Assembly: GCA_965237375.1 (NCBI GenBank)
Contig: CBDEFI010000002.1
Span: forward strand, 15,911-79,910
Length of the DNA: 64,000 bases
From: Acidimicrobiales bacterium
GTDB taxonomy: Bacteria > Actinomycetota > Acidimicrobiia > Acidimicrobiales > CATQHL01
Direction of reading: 5' to 3'
Below are positions 2,863 to 53,871 of this stretch, piece by piece. A model generated the notes under the pieces. The model saw nothing but the letters and a program-made list of their open reading frames with translations, did not search any database and was not told where the DNA came from. The first letter of the stretch is position 1. Each line of letters opens with the position of its first letter. The position numbers were made by a program, and so were the translations under genes.

Positions 2863-3708
2863 ATGTCGGCGAACACTTCTGTTACACCCGACGCCATATC
2901 GGAACTCGCCGCCAAGGAGATCCGCCGGTCTATCTGGCGCCGCTGGGGTTACCGGCTGAGCGTGTTCGTGGGCTGGGCCGTGTTCATCGGCATCTGGTAC
3001 CTGTTCGCCCGGTTCGTCTTCACTCCCCAGCAGTTGCCACAGCCGCACGTCGTGGCCCGCGAGGCGGGGTCGCTGCTCAGCGACCGAAGCTTCAGCGACA
3101 ACCTCCAGGCCAGCGTCACCAAGGTGGTCTCCGGTTTCCTGCTCGCCATCGTGCTGAGCACCGGCCTGGGTCTGCTGATCGCCTACAGCAAATGGTGGCG
3201 CATCCTGCTGCAGAGCCTGCTGCTGTTCATCGTCAGCACCCCCACGGTGAGCTACGCCATCCTCTCGCTGATCGTGCTCGGCATCTCGCCGCTGGGACCG
3301 ATCATCACCACGATGCTGGTGGCGACGCCGTACATCACGATGAACCTGGCGCAGGGTCTCACAGGGGTGGACCGAAGACTGATCGTCATGAGCGAGTCCT
3401 TCGGGCGAACCCGCCAGCAGATCATCGCCGGGGTGCTGCTTCCGTCGTCGCTGCTGTCGGTCATGGGAGGGGCTCGGCTGGCTTTCGCCGTGGCGTGGCG
3501 CATGGAGCTTCTGACCGAGGTCTTCGCCGCCTCCGAAGGCATCGGGTTCCAGATCAGGCGCAGCTTCGAGAGCTACGACATTCAGGGCATGCTGGCCTGG
3601 GCGGTTCTGTTCGTCGCCATCATGCTCATTGTCGAGAACCTGGTCTTCCGCCAGATCGAACGCCGGCTCTCGCGCTGGCGCAGCGCCGACGTGGGGATAA
3701 CGCTATGA
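2863..3708 (+). CDS. ABC transporter permease (NitT/TauT-type, BPD_transp_1)
   Basis: 281 aa with multiple hydrophobic TM segments. EAA-loop-like MSESFGRTRQQIIAGVLLPS. Directly abuts the upstream binding-protein gene. Confidence 0.85.
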   Translation: MSANTSVTPDAISELAAKEIRRSIWRRWGYRLSVFVGWAVFIGIWYLFARFVFTPQQLPQPHVVAREAGSLLSDRSFSDNLQASVTKVVSGFLLAIVLSTGLGLLIAYSKWWRILLQSLLLFIVSTPTVSYAILSLIVLGISPLGPIITTMLVATPYITMNLAQGLTGVDRRLIVMSESFGRTRQQIIAGVLLPSSLLSVMGGARLAFAVAWRMELLTEVFAASEGIGFQIRRSFESYDIQGMLAWAVLFVAIMLIVENLVFRQIERRLSRWRSADVGITL

Positions 3709-45504: not shown

Positions 45505-46545
45505 GTGGGCGGGTTCACCTTCGAGGCCGAGATCACGCCCGGCATGGCACCGGCGCAGGTGGCCGCCCTGGCGGCTGGCGTGGAGCGGGCCGGCTTCGAC
45601 CGGCTCGGCATCTCCGACGTGGTGCTGTGGCACGACTGCTACGTGCTGATGACCCTCTGCGCCGCGGCCACCGAGCGGCTGGAGTTCGGCCCCCTGGTCA
45701 CGAACCCCTATTCGCGCCATCCGGTGGTGTTGGCGGCAGCGGTGGCCACGCTCGGCGAACTCTCCGGTGGCCGGGCGTTCCTGGGCCTTGGGGTGGGCGC
45801 CGGGCTGGAGCAGTTCGGGATGGACTACCCGCGGCCGGTGCGGACCCTGCGGGAGGCGGCGGCGATCTGCCGGGGACTGTGGACCGGCGAGGAGGTCACC
45901 CACCGGGGCGAGATCTTCACCGCCGATGGGGCGCGCCTGCAGAGCCCGCCGGAGGCGATGCCGGCGCTGGTGTTGGGGACCCGCAGTCCCGGTGTCATGC
46001 GTCTTGCCGGGGAGGTGGCCGACCGGGTGCTGGTGGGGGCGCGCTACTGGTCGGCTGCCCAGGCCGACGAGTACCGCCGTTGGCTCGCCGAGGGGGCTGC
46101 CAGGGTCGGTCGCCCGCCGGACGCAGTGGAGGTCTCACCTCGCCTCACGGTGTGCATCTCCGACGACGGCGACCTGGCCCGTCGCAGCGTGAAGCGCTAC
46201 GTGGCGCACTACCTGACCCTGCTGCGCCCGCCCGATCTGAACCTGCCGCCGGGACTGATCGAGCGGATCGACGAGGCGTTGGCACAGGCCCGAGGCTGGT
46301 ACTTCGACCATGACCGCTACGACCCTCCGCAGCTCTTCAGCCTCATCGACGACGACCTGGTGGAGCGCTTCGCCGTGGCGGGCACACCGGCCGAGTGCGT
46401 TGCCCAGATGCGCCGGGTGGCCGACCTGGGTTTCGACTCCTTCAGCCTCAACCTCGCAGCGGTGCTGCGCCCCACCATGTTCGAGGGCCTCGCCGAGACC
46501 ATCGACGGCGCAGCCGGTGTTCTGGCGGCGCTTCGAGTGGCTTGA
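45505..46545 (+). CDS. LLM-class (luciferase-like) flavin/F420-dependent oxidoreductase
   Basis: ...FDRLGISDV...GPLVTNPYSRHPVVLAAAVATLGELSGGRAFLGLGVG... is the typical LLM TIM-barrel signature. Confidence 0.85.
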   Translation: MGGFTFEAEITPGMAPAQVAALAAGVERAGFDRLGISDVVLWHDCYVLMTLCAAATERLEFGPLVTNPYSRHPVVLAAAVATLGELSGGRAFLGLGVGAGLEQFGMDYPRPVRTLREAAAICRGLWTGEEVTHRGEIFTADGARLQSPPEAMPALVLGTRSPGVMRLAGEVADRVLVGARYWSAAQADEYRRWLAEGAARVGRPPDAVEVSPRLTVCISDDGDLARRSVKRYVAHYLTLLRPPDLNLPPGLIERIDEALAQARGWYFDHDRYDPPQLFSLIDDDLVERFAVAGTPAECVAQMRRVADLGFDSFSLNLAAVLRPTMFEGLAETIDGAAGVLAALRVA

Positions 46546-46589
46546 AGGCTCGGGCGGCGGATGCACGGCGGAGAAGCTCTGGGCGGCCG

Positions 46590-47615
46590 GTGGACCCTGC
46601 CCGACCGTTGGGCACGTTGACCTGTCCGCCGACGATCCGGCGTCCGCTGCCCGCTGTTGCTGCGGTGGCGGTCATCGCCCTTGCCGCCGCCGGTTGCGGC
46701 AGCCCGGTGACGACGACGGGCGTGGCCCCCGACGGTCCTGCGACCGAGGCACCCGCTGCCGGGAAGGTTCTTCCCGCGTCCCCCGACACGACTGTTCCCG
46801 TCGCCGCCATTGCCGACCCCACCGTTGCCGACACTGGCGCTGCGACCACCGCCGGCACCGCACCCGTCGAAGCGAAGGACGAGGACGGCACATTCGACGA
46901 CGCCTCCGGCGCTGCTCCGGTGGACGCGGACGGCGCGGCCACACCCGACGCCATCACCCCCGACACGGTCACGCCCGACACCGTCACGCCCGAGGACGGC
47001 CCATCCGACGCCATGACGCCTGAGGTCGTCACCTCCGACGGCAGCGCATCCGACGCCGTCATGCCTGAGTCCGTTACCTCCGACGGCAGCGCATCAGAAG
47101 GCACCGCGGTTGGAGGCACAGCATCCGAGGTCGCCGCGGCGGACCTTCCCGTTACCGACACCGCGGCATCGGGCGGAGAATTCGTTGTGACCGAGGACGT
47201 TCCGGCTTTCGACATGATCGACGTGTCCACCGGCTCGACCGTCAACCTGCGGAGCGTCGTGTCGGGCGGGACGCCATTGCTGTTCTGGTTCTGGTCCCCA
47301 CTTTGACTGACCTGCCAGGAGGAGGCTCCCGGCCTCGAGCAGTTCGCTCGGGACAATTCCCACCGGCTCACCGTGGTCGGCGTCGGCGGCGAGGGGAACA
47401 TCGACTTCGCGCAGCGGTTCGTCGCCGACTCCGGTGTCACGTTCCCGATGCTGTGGAGCGACACCTTCGCTGCGTGGCGCCACTACTCCATCATGCTCAG
47501 TTCCGACTTCTGGCTGCTCGACGAAGCCGGGAACCGGATCGGTGACGGCCCCGCGCCTTACGATCAGGCCGTGGTCGAGGAACTACTGGCCGACCTGGCC
47601 GGCGCGCCCGCCTGA
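46590..47615 (+). CDS. Thioredoxin-fold TlpA/ResA-like lipoprotein, candidate selenoprotein (in-frame TGA 47304-47306 read as Sec)
   Basis: Track ORFs 46395..47306 and 47373..47615 share one frame, separated only by TGA. Read-through gives LLFWFWSPL-U-LTCQEEAPGLEQFA... (UxxC at the CxxC position). Lipobox-like IALAAAGC. Start (GTG 46590 or TTG 46617) uncertain. Confidence 0.6.
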
Positions 47616-47705
47616 TGGAGACACGAATCGCGCGCGCGTGGCTGGTGGCCGACCTGGCCGGCGCGCCCGCCTGATGAAGACACGACTCGCGTGCGCGTTG
47701 CTGGT
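47588..47705 (+). repeat. Diverged tandem duplication of the gene junction between the two redoxin genes (period 59 bp), creating a 19-codon ghost ORF
   Basis: ggccgacctggccggcgcgcccgccTGATGgagacacgaatcgcgcgcgcgtggctggt versus ggccgacctggccggcgcgcccgccTGATGaagacacgactcgcgtgcgcgttgctggt. Confidence 0.85.
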
Positions 47706-48711
47706 GGCCATGCTGGCCGGGTTGGGCGTTGTCGCTGTGCCATCGGTGGCGGCCGCTCAGCAGGCTGATGATGGCGACCACGCCGAGGTGCGGATCGTGG
47801 CGCAGCGGCTCGACGATGATCGCATCGAGTTCGCTCTGCAACAACGGGGGCCGGACGACACCTGGGGTGAACGGCTGCTGCCGGATCAGCGCTTCTTTCC
47901 TGCGGGGGCCGAGGTCGGCCGCTGGCTGGTCAGTTCGCCGCTCGTCCTGACGACCGGCAACAGCACGACAGGAGTGCCTGACTCCAGCGCGGCGGTGGAA
48001 GTGCGCATAGTCGCGCAGCGCCTGTCCAGCGGGCGCACCGAGTTCGCTCTCCAGCAGCGAGCGCCCGACGACATCTGGGGTGAACGGCTGCTGCCGGAGC
48101 GGCGCTTCTTCCCTGCCCGGGTCGAAGTCGGTCGCTGGCTGGCCAGTTCTCCTCTTGAGTTGCAGATCGTCGCCGGCACAACCGACTCCGGACCGGTCGA
48201 CACCGCCCAAGGCACCGGCTCTCCGCCTGAGGAGCACCCGGAACAGGACGACCCGCCTGCAGAGGGCGACGAGCAGTCCGGCGCCGTTTCGATCTCCGCG
48301 GACGTTCCCGACTTCGACATGGTCGACGTTCACAGCGGCGAGACGGTCAACCTCCGATCCGTCGTGACCGGCGAGACGCCGCTGCTGTTCTGGCTGTGGT
48401 CACCGTATTGAGGCACCTGCCAGAGCCACGCTCCGGCCATCGAGCAGTTCGCTCGAGACAACTCCCACCGGCTCACCGTCGTCGGCATCGGCACCGTGGG
48501 CGACCTCGAAACCGCCCAGAACTTCGTCGACTACCACGGGATCACCTTCACGATGCTCTGGAGCGAGTCGCCGCAGCCAACGGACTACTACCAGACGATT
48601 ACAGGCGTATGGTCCAGCGTCTGGCTGCTCGACAGCACCGGCGACCGCGTGCTGAGTGTCAACAGATTCCACGGCGCCGTTCTCGAGTACCTCCTGGCCG
48701 AGTACTTGTGA
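47674..48711 (+). CDS. Secreted protein: two novel ~55-aa repeats plus a thioredoxin-fold TlpA/ResA-like domain, candidate selenoprotein (in-frame TGA 48409-48411 read as Sec)
   Basis: ATG 47674, signal peptide MKTRLACALLVAMLAGLGVVAVPSVAAA|QQ. Track ORFs 47434..48411 and 48496..48711 share one frame. Read-through gives LLFWLWSPY-U-GTCQSHAPAIEQFA... Confidence 0.6.
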
Positions 48712-50243: not shown

Positions 50244-51242
50244 ATGAGCACGCACGTCTTCTCCGACAATCCCGCCCTGGCGGACGCCTGGCACGCGGTC
50301 ACCCGCACCGGCGACGTGGCACCCGGCCCGCTGGGCGTGCGCCTGCTGGGACGGCCGTACGTGCTGTGGCGCGACCCCGCGGGGGTCGTGACGGCGGCGG
50401 CGGATCGCTGCCCGCACCGGGAGGCGCCCCTCTCGGCCGGCACGGTGATCGACGGGTGCCTGCAGTGCTGCTACCACGGCTGGCGTTTCGGGGCCGAGGG
50501 GCGCTGCGTGCTGGTTCCGTCCGCGCAACCCGGCGTGCCGGCCCCGCCGAGGGCCCATCTGGGGCCGGTCGGGGCGACGGAACGCTACGGGCTGGTGTGG
50601 ATCTGTCCGGGCACGCCGGCCGAGGACATCCCGGTCATCGTCGAGGATTCCGATCCGTCGTTCCGGCGCATCAACCCCGATGTGGAGGTGTGGGCGGCGT
50701 CGGCGACGCGGATGGTGGACAACTTCGTGGACATCACGCATTTCCCGTTCGTGCACGCCGGCACCATCGGCGGTGACACCGACGAGGTGGTGCCCCGCCT
50801 GGAGTTGGCGCAACTCGACGAGAGCTTCTACGGCTACCGCTACGAGGTGACCGTCAGCAACCCGGAGATCGCGTCGGCCACCTCGGGCACGGCGGGAGGG
50901 GTGGTGGCCCGCAGGATGTCCAGCGCGTTCGCGCTGCCGTTCGCCTGCCGCAGCACCATTGCCTACGAGACCGGCCTGGAGCACGTCCTGCTGCTGTTGT
51001 CGACCCCCATCGACGATGTGACCTCGTACTTCATCTTCGTAGTGTGGCGCAACGATGACTTCTCGGTGCCCTCCGACGAGGTGATCCGCTTCGATCTGGC
51101 CATTGGCGCCGAGGACAAGCTGATGCTGGAGCGCCTCGACGGCGTGTTGCCGCTCAAACTGGCCGGCACCGTGAGCGTCCAGTCCGACAAGCCCTCGGTG
51201 GAGTGGCGCCGCCGTTTCTCGTCCCTCCTGGCCGGGAGTTAG
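50244..51242 (+). CDS. Rieske [2Fe-2S] non-haem iron oxygenase, alpha-subunit-like
   Basis: ATG 50244, in frame with track ORF 49359..51242. Rieske motif CPHREAPL...CCYHGWRF. Catalytic-domain DNFVDITHFPFVH. Confidence 0.85.
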   Translation: MSTHVFSDNPALADAWHAVTRTGDVAPGPLGVRLLGRPYVLWRDPAGVVTAAADRCPHREAPLSAGTVIDGCLQCCYHGWRFGAEGRCVLVPSAQPGVPAPPRAHLGPVGATERYGLVWICPGTPAEDIPVIVEDSDPSFRRINPDVEVWAASATRMVDNFVDITHFPFVHAGTIGGDTDEVVPRLELAQLDESFYGYRYEVTVSNPEIASATSGTAGGVVARRMSSAFALPFACRSTIAYETGLEHVLLLLSTPIDDVTSYFIFVVWRNDDFSVPSDEVIRFDLAIGAEDKLMLERLDGVLPLKLAGTVSVQSDKPSVEWRRRFSSLLAGS

Positions 51243-51274
51243 GACTGTGCCGAGTAATACCGCCGACCTCTAGC

Positions 51275-51315
51275 TCGTCATTCCGGCGAAGAGCCGGCCC
51301 GAACCCGCTGGCGCG
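51275..51315 (+). repeat. Degenerate REP-like repeat
   Basis: cgtcattccggcgaagagccggcccgaacccgctggcgcg, at the left edge of the low-GC island. Confidence 0.55.
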
Positions 51316-51397
51316 AAGCCTTACGCCTCGCCCGCCGAGTTGCCCCCTACTAGCCACCACTACGGCGGGCCGTCACGCGGCGTCAGCTACGGGTTGA

Positions 51398-52618
51398 TCA
51401 CCCAGTCGGCTGGCTTCTCTGCTTGATCACATTGTCCAGAGTCTGAGCAATGAGCCGATTCGTGTTGGTCACGGTCACTCGGGCGAAGAACGAGTAGTGG
51501 CCCATTTCGACCACAAGCTTGGCAATGAACTCGTCTGCAAATGAGGCGGATACGAGAGCCACATCACCGAAGTCGACTCTGACTCGAGCCCCCTGAAACT
51601 GGGTCATGAGATTCTGCAGCTTTGTTCGGAGTTCTCGTCCGGTTTGACGATTGCCGAACCCGCTCGCTTCTTCCGCGACTCGGAAAACAATCTCGTTCTT
51701 GTCATCCAAATGGGTCATCTCGAACTCCGCCGTAGGAGGTGTCCCCCACAGCGCCTGGGAGATATCGATCTCGACATTCGTGGGCAGGATCAGACTCACG
51801 CTTGTGCCTGGAACGGCTCCTGACTTGCGAGTCGTCGAATCGCCGTTGACGATGTTGAGTTCCGCATTGCCGGACATGATCATTAGTTCTCCGCCGGCTG
51901 TCGAGACGATACGCACCGAGCCGGCGAGCCCGTTTCCTTGACCCGCGGCGTGGTCGCGGGTCACTCCTGCCTGAATGGCCTTCGACAGGGCCTCCTCATC
52001 GTTCCGGGTCTTGTGCGCCTGTGCGAGTGAGGCTCGGATGCCGCGACCGTAGTCCGAGACAACAAGATCAACCTTTTTCTGGTCAGGGTGGCTAACGACT
52101 TGTATGAACCCTTCGACATTCTCTCCCGGTTCACCTGCATGGACCAGTACGTTGTCGGCAAGCTCGTTCAAGGTCCATGCGACCGAGTCCAGCACGCCTG
52201 GCGAGCATTGCATGTGGCGCGACAGCACGTCCATGACTGCTGTCACAATGCCGTTGAGGCCACTGGAATCGGAGTACCCTTGAACAGGCAGATAAGACTT
52301 GCCACAATCAATTAGCGGCGGCTCTACCCCTGCGATAATCTGCCTCCAGCCGGCGATATCCCAGTAGTAATCGTCGTACGGGTACATCACCTCGATCTCA
52401 GTTCCCTGAGCGCGCAGATGCTTGATAAGTGAGATCAGCGGGACAACGGCCGTCGCGTAGGAGAAATTGACGTTCTCAAGGTCGAGGCGAAGGCTTCTCG
52501 GAAGCGATTGACCATAGAGGCGCCTTGTGATGCTTCGAAATTTGTTGCGATCAAAGACGCCCTCAAACTCCATATTGAGTTGACGATTCCTGTACACCAT
52601 GATGATCCTCTCATGCAC
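51398..52618 (-). CDS. GHKL/histidine-kinase-like ATPase flanked by STAS-like domains (C-terminal DUF4325-like); low-GC single-gene island
   Basis: N-box-like LNELADNVLVHA, G1 SDYGRGI, G2 GQGNGLAG. C-terminus ...VRVDFGDVALVSASFADEFIAKLV... resembles the DUF4325 STAS-like domain. A sampled line is 50% GC versus ~70% in flanks. Confidence 0.7.
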   Translation of the reverse strand: MHERIIMVYRNRQLNMEFEGVFDRNKFRSITRRLYGQSLPRSLRLDLENVNFSYATAVVPLISLIKHLRAQGTEIEVMYPYDDYYWDIAGWRQIIAGVEPPLIDCGKSYLPVQGYSDSSGLNGIVTAVMDVLSRHMQCSPGVLDSVAWTLNELADNVLVHAGEPGENVEGFIQVVSHPDQKKVDLVVSDYGRGIRASLAQAHKTRNDEEALSKAIQAGVTRDHAAGQGNGLAGSVRIVSTAGGELMIMSGNAELNIVNGDSTTRKSGAVPGTSVSLILPTNVEIDISQALWGTPPTAEFEMTHLDDKNEIVFRVAEEASGFGNRQTGRELRTKLQNLMTQFQGARVRVDFGDVALVSASFADEFIAKLVVEMGHYSFFARVTVTNTNRLIAQTLDNVIKQRSQPTG

Positions 52619-52788
52619 AGATCCTGTGCTCTGGACAGATCAGACTACATCCACTCGAAGCCGGCCCGGCTCGTCCGCCGCAGGCGCGTGCGGCGCCCGC
52701 CGCTTGCCGCCGCCGCAGGGTCGTCGGCGCTGCCGCGGCGGTCGGCATCCCTCGGACCCGGGCTGGATTTGCTCGGCCGTAACGTTGG

Positions 52789-53037
52789 CTACAGGTTGGG
52801 GCGAGGGGAGTCCAGCGAGGAGAATGAGAAGACAACGTTGCTCATGCTGGCCTCGGCGTTGGCCTCGCCGGCGATGTTCTGGACGATGGTGATGCGGTTG
52901 GCGCCGCAGTCGCCGAAGTCGTCGCAGGTGATCGTGCCGCTGAGGCCGCTGAATCCCTCGACGCCGTCGAGGCAGTCGCGCACGCCTTGGCGGTCGACAA
53001 CCAGCGTGTCGCCGTCGAGGTAGGAGGCGCTGAAACG
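52789..53037 (-). pseudogene. 5'-truncated remnant of a Leu/Ile/Val-type ABC substrate-binding protein gene
   Basis: Only the C-terminal ~80 codons remain (...FSASYLDGDTLVVDRQGVRDCLDGVEGFSGLSGTITCDDFGDCGANRITIVQN...). The reading frame is closed upstream by a stop, right against the end of the next gene. Confidence 0.5.
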
Positions 53038-53043
53038 TGCTCG

Positions 53044-53871
53044 TCAGGGCATGTAGCGGAGGTTCGTGACGATCCGCTCGGCGGCCTCGGTGTCACCGTC
53101 GAGGCTGACGAGGCCCTGCCCGATGGCGTCGGTGCCCGCAATTCGCCCTCCGGCCAGCCGGGTGTAGGTGTGGGCGTCGGTACCGATGGTGATCGTGGGC
53201 TCCGCATCGCCGTCGAAGACACCCACGAGCCGGCCGCGACGCTCGGCGACCTGCACCCGCCAGGCGCGAGCGGCCGGACCGGTCAGGTCGATCAACACTC
53301 TCGCGCCGTCGGGGGCCCGCCCCAACTTGGCGACGGCGAACCCCACGGCGACGGCGAACTCATCGAGGGCAACGTCGACCACCGGCCCCTCCCGGTGGCC
53401 CGGAGCGCCGATCGCGCCCCTGATGTCCTGCTCGTGGACCCAGCAGTCCAGCGTCCTGATCCGCATGAACCGCCCGTAGGTGTCGTTGCCGGCCGGGGTC
53501 CACGATTCGGCGTCGAAGTCGGCCTGCGTCAGGCCCGCCAGTGCCGAGAGTCGTCCTGCGGTCACCTCCCGGAACTCCTCGAGCACGGCGGCCGGCGCCC
53601 AGGGACGACGCTCGGCGATCCACAACTCGTTCATCCGACCGATCTCGTTGCGGACGTGAGGCGATTCACCCAGGTCCACGTCAGGCGCCGGATCGCCGCT
53701 CAACATGCGCTCGGTGCCGGTGATGTGGCTGAGGTTGTCCTGGACACTCCAGCCGGGGCAGTCGGTGGCCGCTTCCCACTGCGCATCATCCAGCCCGTCG
53801 CAGAGATCGGCCATGGCCTCCCACTCGGCCGCGAGGGCAGCGACGACGGTGTCCTTGTCGACGGTGACCAT
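53044..53871 (-). CDS. Mycothiol-dependent maleylpyruvate isomerase family / DinB-like (TIGR03083-type) protein
   Basis: MVTVDKDTVVAALAAEWEAMADLCDGLDDAQWEAATDCPGWSVQDNLSHITGTE is the typical N-terminal MDMPI_N domain. Confidence 0.8.
   Translation of the reverse strand: MVTVDKDTVVAALAAEWEAMADLCDGLDDAQWEAATDCPGWSVQDNLSHITGTERMLSGDPAPDVDLGESPHVRNEIGRMNELWIAERRPWAPAAVLEEFREVTAGRLSALAGLTQADFDAESWTPAGNDTYGRFMRIRTLDCWVHEQDIRGAIGAPGHREGPVVDVALDEFAVAVGFAVAKLGRAPDGARVLIDLTGPAARAWRVQVAERRGRLVGVFDGDAEPTITIGTDAHTYTRLAGGRIAGTDAIGQGLVSLDGDTEAAERIVTNLRYMP

Follow-up and report, generated by a model that had tools for sequence, protein, structure and literature searches.

In-frame UGA codons in tandem DsbE/DsbF-like redoxin genes of Acidimicrobiia very probably encode selenocysteine

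Two tandem redoxin genes of an Acidimicrobiales bacterium each carry an in-frame TGA where the first cysteine of a CxxC active site would be expected, and the question raised by this locus is whether these codons end translation or are read as selenocysteine (Sec, U). The genes lie in a 64-kb stretch of contig CBDEFI010000002.1 (64,000 nucleotides, called the window below), and our analysis indicates that both TGAs encode selenocysteine and the products are genuine UxxC selenoproteins, each with very high probability. The genes and the two codons are located as follows.

46590 to 47615, plus strand: gene 1, a lipoprotein-type UxxC redoxin of 341 codons with a TGA stop at 47613-47615 (from frame, translation and Pfam).
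47674 to 48711, plus strand: gene 2, a UxxC redoxin predicted to be secreted, with ATG at 47674, 345 codons and a TGA stop at 48709-48711.
47304 to 47306, plus strand: proposed Sec-UGA of gene 1, motif U-L-T-C, resolving Cys codon at 47313-47315, aligned with the N-terminal Cys of CxxC.
48409 to 48411, plus strand: proposed Sec-UGA of gene 2, motif U-G-T-C, resolving Cys codon at 48418-48420.

The start of gene 1 is uncertain and could be either GTG 46590 or the in-frame TTG 46617. The layout on which the original prediction was built is confirmed by the sequence: the open reading frames (ORFs) 46395..47306 and 47373..47615 lie in a single frame with TGA 47304-47306 as the sole break between them, and the same is true of ORFs 47434..48411 and 48496..48711 with TGA 48409-48411. 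Translation through the codons gives, as had been proposed, ...LLFWFWSPL-U-LTCQEEAPGLEQFARDNSHRLTVVGVG... for gene 1 and ...LLFWLWSPY-U-GTCQSHAPAIEQFARDNSHRLTVVGIG... for gene 2, and the first CxxC position is a TGA in both (SPL-U-LTC and SPY-U-GTC, respectively). The GC content at the first, second and third codon positions (0.70/0.47/0.87 over the 309 nt that follow the first TGA) is a coding signature.

Conservation of the TGA is the first line of evidence. Searched with the read-through redoxin domain, a set of 5.8 billion proteins gave 22 matches, all of which are fragments, either N-terminal ones ending at ...LLFWLWSPY or C-terminal ones beginning two residues past the TGA; one of them (P0001, end ...WSPY) is the N-terminal fragment of the window's own gene 2. 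The family genes are split into two such fragments by all gene callers and database records examined. At the nucleotide level, scanning GTDB with one genome for each species yielded 78 loci, nearly all from metagenome-assembled genomes (MAGs) of Acidimicrobiia/Acidimicrobiales and many of them sponge-derived (Sva0996 bin134, SB06xx bins, Ca. Poriferisocius, Spongiisociaceae, Aldehydirespirator). Within these loci TGA stands at 133/133 sites (119 unique sequences), and a scan of marine, saline and soil JGI metagenomes gave 82 further TGA sites and four Cys-form sites. The total stands at 219 TGA sites from Acidimicrobiia genomes and metagenomes, representing at least 70 species. Neither TAA nor TAG nor any sense codon except Cys occurs at the Sec position among the recovered sites, and TGC/TGT is restricted to a few distinct Cys-form relatives. 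We also surveyed the window and the loci for further genes in which coding signal flanks an in-frame TGA on either side, and there were none besides the redoxins.

Gene 1 has orthologues in five loci (L005, L012, L014, L015 and L023), and in the syntenic contigs the two split genes are likewise flanked by a luciferase-like oxidoreductase gene and two glyoxalase genes. The gene copies are mostly tandem pairs, and three consecutive Sec-redoxin genes are found in Spongiisociaceae MAGs (at 3127/4274/5591 in L026 and 3124/4269/5588 in L033). In a 595-bp ENA contig (P0002) a gene-1-like redoxin C-terminus runs in frame and stop-free into a gene-2-like linker and redoxin domain, an arrangement that would correspond to one polypeptide with two Sec-redoxin domains. 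An identical Sec-redoxin peptide is encoded in an Acidimicrobiales MAG (L078, JADLEF010000453.1) and in a 2.8-kb contig assigned to an 'uncultured Phenylobacterium sp.' MAG (L077, NZ_CADEGK010000334.1); the latter contig is probably mis-binned.

The second line of evidence comes from the region downstream of the TGA. An in-frame stop within 93 codons after the TGA is present in 0/190 unique sequences, while the other two frames are interrupted in 169/190 and 124/190, and the downstream lengths concentrate at 96-100 codons. The original prediction held that the genes are translated through the TGA under purifying selection, and the data support this: besides the open frame, the ratio of non-synonymous to synonymous substitution rates (dN/dS, NG86 method) of gene 1 against its five orthologues is 0.20-0.28 after the TGA, with about 13/7/30 differences at codon positions 1/2/3. 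The median NG86 values over all paralogue pairs, 0.48 upstream and 0.67 downstream, were set aside because they are saturated and inflated by the strong codon bias at third positions, so that only close orthologues are informative. Alignment A1 contains 20 invariant residues downstream of the TGA. The terminal stop of the family genes is itself TGA in 101/132 cases, from which we conclude that the genetic code is unchanged.

The third line of evidence is an RNA structure that follows the TGA. We analysed it in alignment A2, which holds 115 distinct sequences, ungapped, and covers the TGA with 6 nt of upstream and 75 nt of downstream sequence. The RNAalifold consensus consists of one hairpin (hairpin 2), in which columns 38-43 pair with 49-54 around the loop AGUU(C/U) and which is 98% paired; it is preceded by a variable stem-loop (hairpin 1) between the UGA and hairpin 2. 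We read the two hairpins as the selenocysteine insertion sequence (SECIS) of each gene.

47313 to 47334, plus strand: gene 1 putative SECIS hairpin 1, variable stem-loop, -11.4 kcal/mol.
47334 to 47352, plus strand: gene 1 putative SECIS hairpin 2, stem 47334-47340/47346-47352, loop AGUUC 47341-47345, -9.7 kcal/mol.
48418 to 48439, plus strand: gene 2 putative SECIS hairpin 1, -9.5 kcal/mol.
48439 to 48457, plus strand: gene 2 putative SECIS hairpin 2, stem 48440-48445/48451-48456, loop AGUUC 48446-48450, -8.8 kcal/mol.

The distance from the UGA to the loop of hairpin 2 is fixed at 34 nt, and in gene 1 the hairpin coincides with the codons of the peptide LEQFAR. At pair 39-53, 87 sequences have C-G and 26 have U-A, and at pair 41-51, 99 have A-U and 13 have G-C; these exchanges make up 39 compensatory cells (26 from C-G to U-A and 13 from A-U to G-C). 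At the codon level the change CTC to CTT goes together with CGA to CAA, which replaces R by Q, and GCT to GCC goes together with GAG to GGG, which replaces E by G. Each coupling joins a synonymous third-codon site to a non-synonymous one at a distance of 10-14 nt, which selection at the protein level cannot explain. Moreover, the stem keeps codons that are otherwise rare: Ala GCT in 100/115 sequences as against 5.2% of the Ala codons in 17 window genes, and Arg CGA in 59/88 as against 5.6% in the window genes. A search of 630 kb on both strands finds the motif G[AG]GCAGTT[CT]GC[TC]C 133 times, every time 31 nt past a TGA.

The published rules for a bacterial SECIS (bSECIS) require a loop of 3-9 nt, an upper stem of 4-16 bp, a G in the first two loop positions, a distance of 16-37 nt from the UGA and a minimum free energy (MFE) of at most -7.5 kcal/mol (PMC13188914). 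Hairpin 2 satisfies these rules, having a 5-nt loop with G at position 2, a 6-7 bp stem, the 34-nt spacing and the energies listed above. Hairpin 1 is GC-rich, with a mean of -11 kcal/mol, and is present in most family members; its sequence and register vary by subfamily, it is 71% paired in a fixed register, and compensatory changes are seen in 4/7 pairs. We favour hairpin 2 as the SelB contact because its loop is invariant.

The conserved structure is not the one named in the original prediction (CTGC/GCAG and GAGGC/GCCTC), whose hairpins show no covariation beyond that of shuffled controls in the 115-sequence alignment. The lower stem overlaps and competes with hairpin 2 and is uninformative because it is built of invariant coding bases; the upper stem is 60% paired and has no excess covariation. 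The original prediction called its SECIS evidence weak; the conserved hairpin of gene 2, at 48439-48457, is as good as that of gene 1.

Relatives with cysteine in place of Sec serve as natural controls. An exhaustive HMMER search with the C-terminal 99 residues of gene 2 recovered eight full-length Cys-form relatives (P0023, P0024, P0027, P0042, P0045, P0050, P0054 and P0058), most of which have lipoprotein signals and the motif WFWAPH-C-xx-C; the first six of them carry Cys at the U position. The alignment with Cys homologues, which had been suggested as a check, places the TGA at the position of the catalytic Cys of Mycobacterium tuberculosis DsbE/DsbF, P0023, P0024 and others. The SECIS hairpin is not kept in the Cys forms. 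Their equivalents of EQFAR read EELAR, EQLSQ, VAFAE, EAFSK, EAFAA, ERFAR and ERLAA, and P0023, which retains the EQFAR peptide, does so with CTG and GCC, both of them common codons, and forms 4/6 pairs; its local MFE is -11.5 kcal/mol as against -23.2 +/- 3.8 kcal/mol in the Sec forms. Because the Cys forms either vary the peptide or recode it, the invariance of EQFA(R/Q) in the Sec forms is largely an RNA constraint. Remnants of the SECIS region are visible in two Cys forms, L169 at 6666 on the plus strand (5/6 pairs) and L172, which is the locus of P0023 (4/6 pairs), and would fit a recent conversion from Sec to Cys.

Taken together, the conservation of the TGA, the intact downstream frame, the Cys homologues and the covarying hairpin support the proposal of tandem thioredoxin-fold redoxins with UGA-encoded Sec. 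The SECIS just 3' of the UGA, composed of the variable hairpin followed by the invariant 6-7 bp hairpin with the apical loop AGUUC 34 nt past the UGA, would recruit the complex of SelB, GTP and Sec-tRNA(Sec) during translation, and Sec would be inserted without termination.

Several observations weigh against this interpretation and have to be considered. Neither the 64-kb window nor some 1.1 Mb of related loci yielded selA, selB, selD or tRNA-Sec, the search consisting of ARAGORN on the window and 140 loci and of tblastn with E. coli SelA, SelB and SelD on the window and all loci. Four SelB-like matches (25% identity) turned out to be CysN-CysC fusions adjoining CysD. The COG table of Sva0996 bin134 lists SelD=1, SelA=0 and SelB=0, the draft being 90% complete (PMC5649159); this bin is the MAG of locus L087, which has two family members. 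Hairpin 1 lies outside the bSECIS rules in some members, and no Rfam SECIS model matched at gathering or permissive thresholds, a null result that is to be expected because Rfam covers bacterial SECIS poorly. Finally, the C-terminal part of gene 2 diverges fast from its orthologues, with about 35% amino-acid difference, post-TGA differences of 24/18/28 at codon positions 1/2/3 and an NG86 dN/dS of about 0.5; it contains no indels larger than one codon. Sec machinery is documented elsewhere in the class: selA/B/C/D are reported in all Actinomarinales of the Acidimicrobiia (bioRxiv 10.64898/2026.04.03.716425, 2026 preprint), and the Acidimicrobiia sponge bin76 possesses SelA, SelB and SelD (PMC5649159, Table S4). 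In sponge symbionts, SelA and SelB were found to be enriched (Slaby et al. 2017, PMC5649159). Our literature search found no paper on selenoproteins of sponge Acidimicrobiia or Microtrichales.

One could argue that the hairpins promote read-through of the UGA without Sec, a near-cognate tRNA inserting Trp, Cys or Arg, or Cys being carried on tRNA-Sec. Stable structures 3' of stop codons can indeed favour read-through, and the lack of Sec machinery in the window and the presence of SelD without SelA or SelB in bin134 would agree with it. However, the UGA stands exactly at the catalytic Cys of CxxC, the classic position of Sec/Cys exchange, and a sense codon would be the simpler way to specify Cys or Trp, yet none is found at the 219 sites. 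Additionally, the hairpin fits a SelB-type bSECIS in its loop, the position of the G and its spacing, and the machinery exists elsewhere in the class. We regard read-through without Sec as very improbable. Recoding of the UGA outside the canonical SelA/SelB route was considered because bin134, with its two intact family members, is reported with SelD only and because the conserved element has two hairpins and an invariant loop unusually far (34 nt) from the UGA. We hold this to be very improbable; a divergent SelB with a clade-specific SECIS is much likelier. Should complete Acidimicrobiia chromosomes that bear the family lack SelA and SelB, the UGA at this redox-active site would be recoded by a mechanism not described before.

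It could also be that translation truly terminates at the UGA and that an N-terminal and a separately initiated C-terminal polypeptide are made, which perhaps reassemble. The C-terminal fragments P0003 and P0004 do have a possible start two codons past the UGA ('MCRSEAP...'), but no such start is present at this place in the window genes (U-L-T-C and U-G-T-C). Such a split would sever the thioredoxin fold within its active site with loss of the nucleophile, no Shine-Dalgarno-like requirement is conserved, and the hairpin and its spacing would be left unexplained; we find this alternative very hard to credit. We give still less credence to the notion that both genes are dead through nonsense mutation. 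Gene callers do split every copy in two ORFs, and the downstream part of gene 2 is fairly fast-evolving, but the same 'mutation' would have to be present at 219/219 sites in at least 70 species, with no frameshift or second stop in 190 downstream regions, with invariant downstream residues, with compensatory changes in the hairpin and with a downstream dN/dS of about 0.2-0.28 in gene 1. Sequencing or assembly artefacts can be dismissed, since the identical feature is found in independent ENA, Logan, NCBI and JGI assemblies from short and long reads.

With Sec as the most probable reading of both codons, the next question is to which family the proteins belong. The read-through proteins, with C in place of U, were scanned against Pfam at the gathering cut-offs of 26 bits for AhpC-TSA and 26.6 bits for Redoxin. 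Gene 1 scores 29.8 bits with AhpC-TSA (PF00578) and 29.3 with Redoxin (PF08534) over residues 201-314, gene 2 scores 33.3 bits with Redoxin and 33.0 with AhpC-TSA over residues 209-317, and in both cases the match crosses the TGA. When the family profile is compared with solved structures, DsbF 3IOS (3.7e-22, 81.5 bits) and Mpt53/DsbE 1LU4 (1.1e-21, 80.0 bits) are matched over the whole domain, while StoA/ResA reach at most 55.8 bits and CcmG and thioredoxins are also far lower. These profile scores place both proteins in the actinobacterial DsbE(Mpt53)/DsbF branch. The original prediction had described them as TlpA/ResA-like redoxins of the thioredoxin fold; the fold stands, and the kinship with ResA/TlpA gives way to DsbE(Mpt53)/DsbF as the nearest characterised proteins. 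An assignment to the ResA or CcmG(DsbE) reductants was rejected, as NCBIfam ResA scores 22.5-26 bits (cut-off 170) and dsbE 18-24 bits (cut-off 123); no ccm, res or CcdA genes are present among the neighbours of the examined loci. No NCBIfam model scores the redoxin family at its curated cut-off, and weak matches to the WAxxUGC, TUGYCR and SelL-related NCBIfam models appear in some relatives.

The N-terminal parts of the two proteins differ, and two features have to be introduced here.

46590 to 46697, plus strand: putative signal peptide of gene 1 with the lipobox LAAAG-C, Cys codon at 46695-46697 (inferred by eye).
47776 to 48168, plus strand: tandem all-beta modules of gene 2, about 60 amino acids each, residues 35-95 and 107-165 (from alignment A4 and the predicted structure).

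In gene 1 the lipobox, which resembles those of the Cys forms P0023, P0024, P0027, P0042, P0045 and P0050, is followed by a low-complexity Thr/Pro/Asp linker. Part of this linker (46940-47095) consists of imperfect tandem repeats with periods of 15, 30 and 45 nt, encoding TPDTV-/SDGSAS-type sequence. Gene 2 begins with a putative signal peptide at about 47674-47757, whose hydrophobic N-terminus, read by eye, ends in VAAA-QQ, and continues with the two beta modules, an acidic linker and the redoxin domain. Judged from their N-termini, the product of gene 1 would be a lipoprotein and that of gene 2 would be secreted. The module consensus VRIVAQR..D.R.EFALQ.R....W.ER.LP..RFFP....VGRWL.SSP is kept in the orthologues, and the predicted pLDDT is about 90 over both modules. 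They have no Pfam match and no fold match in the PDB (best Foldseek E 0.075, TM below 0.25), and the module may be an undescribed extracytoplasmic domain.

The products would be exported thiol:disulfide oxidoreductases of the thioredoxin fold with a U-x-x-C active site, in which Sec would act as the attacking nucleophile. By analogy with the mycobacterial enzymes, they would most likely act, as oxidants or as reductants, on paired cysteines in proteins that are secreted or belong to the envelope.

The gene neighbourhood differs by subfamily: LLM oxidoreductase/glyoxalase/Rieske, PDH E1/PstS-like, GcvT/MerR, or CysNC. CcdA/DsbD, VKOR and ccm genes are absent among the neighbours in the window and the examined loci. 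Since the neighbours vary among subfamilies, the context points to no redox partner or substrate. In one marine subfamily (L136 12999-14963, L159 1550-3451, L150 and L163) the Sec-redoxin gene adjoins a CysN-CysC fusion and CysD, which belong to sulfate activation. Between the two window genes lies a 59-bp tandem duplication (47587..47720, plus strand, 2.3 copies, 90% identical, TRF score 219) that spans the gene 1 stop and the gene 2 start. It yields a chimeric mini-ORF of 19 codons at 47615-47674, with a gene-2-like start (METRIARAWLVA) and a gene-1-like end (DLAGAPA*), which overlaps both neighbour genes via the TGATG stop-start motif; in relatives both genes directly overlap by 4 nt (L005: 5774-6004 and 6001-6753). 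Further downstream, window 51242-53044, between the Rieske oxygenase and MDMPI-like genes, contains no ORF that passes the coding-signal filter, and L009 and L010 have an HTH-HipA toxin-antitoxin pair at the corresponding place.

UxxC proteins of the thioredoxin fold are the commonest class of bacterial selenoproteins, and therefore the principle found here is not new. What the family offers is of another kind. Given the splitting of its genes in all records examined and the lack of an NCBIfam model, the annotation of Acidimicrobiia MAGs, which often derive from sponges, is systematically wrong at two or three loci in each genome. A large and almost purely Sec-containing branch of the DsbE/DsbF family would be a natural experiment on the role of selenium in extracytoplasmic thiol-disulfide chemistry, and its SECIS, unusually well defined by covariation, accounts for the puzzling invariant EQFAR peptide as an RNA constraint. 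The redoxin family could also be a handy marker of Sec use in a class where Sec is barely documented.

How, then, does this system compare with those already known? The SECIS of E. coli fdhF is likewise a stem-loop in the coding region after the UGA with G-U in its apical loop. Its loop GU stands at +23/+24 from the U of the UGA, whereas that of window hairpin 2 stands at +39/+40, with a separate variable hairpin in between and the loop AGUUC. Among the proteins, M. tuberculosis DsbF (Rv1677, 3IOS) and DsbE/Mpt53 (Rv2878c, 1LU4) are the closest solved structures over the whole domain, with the same surroundings of the active site (LWFWAPW-C-PTC as compared with LWFWAPH-U-PTC in the Sec family). 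Like the window proteins they are a pair of actinobacterial paralogues of the thioredoxin fold; they are exported, and the window proteins are predicted to be so. They act as oxidants, which fold hirudin oxidatively but leave insulin unreduced (PMC3853704). Unlike these Cys enzymes, the window proteins would have Sec at the first position, in the motifs SPL-U-LTC and SPY-U-GTC, and gene 2 carries two extra N-terminal beta modules.

The selenoproteins annotated as 'Prx-like thiol:disulfide oxidoreductase' or 'thiol:disulfide interchange protein' have the same AhpC-TSA/Redoxin fold, a UxxC motif with Sec first and a SECIS in the coding region directly past the UGA. UxxC families were described by Kryukov and Gladyshev, by Zhang et al. 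2006 (PMC1794560), as Prx-like 1/3 of the GOS data (PMC2398784) and in a catalogue (PMC13188914). Judged by their descriptions, the published families come mainly from Deltaproteobacteria, Clostridia and ocean reads, while the branch of the window is specific to Acidimicrobiia, is predicted to be exported, is usually arranged in tandem arrays of 2-3 genes and is almost exclusively of the Sec form. NF041054, the 'ResA-like WAxxUGC motif-containing protein', is also a TlpA/ResA-like selenoprotein, but its motif is U-G-C (UxC) and not U-x-x-C; it gives weak matches in 9/33 relatives (best E 3.7e-09) and none with the two window proteins at E <= 0.01. Thus, UxxC thiol:disulfide selenoproteins as such have been known since 2004-2008 (PMC1794560, PMC2398784, PMC13188914). 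The Acidimicrobiia lineage, often associated with sponges, the affiliation with DsbE/DsbF together with predicted export, the almost complete reliance on Sec and the tandem arrangement of the genes appear, from the sequences compared, to be new. New as well are the definition of the SECIS by covariation and the systematic mis-annotation of these genes.

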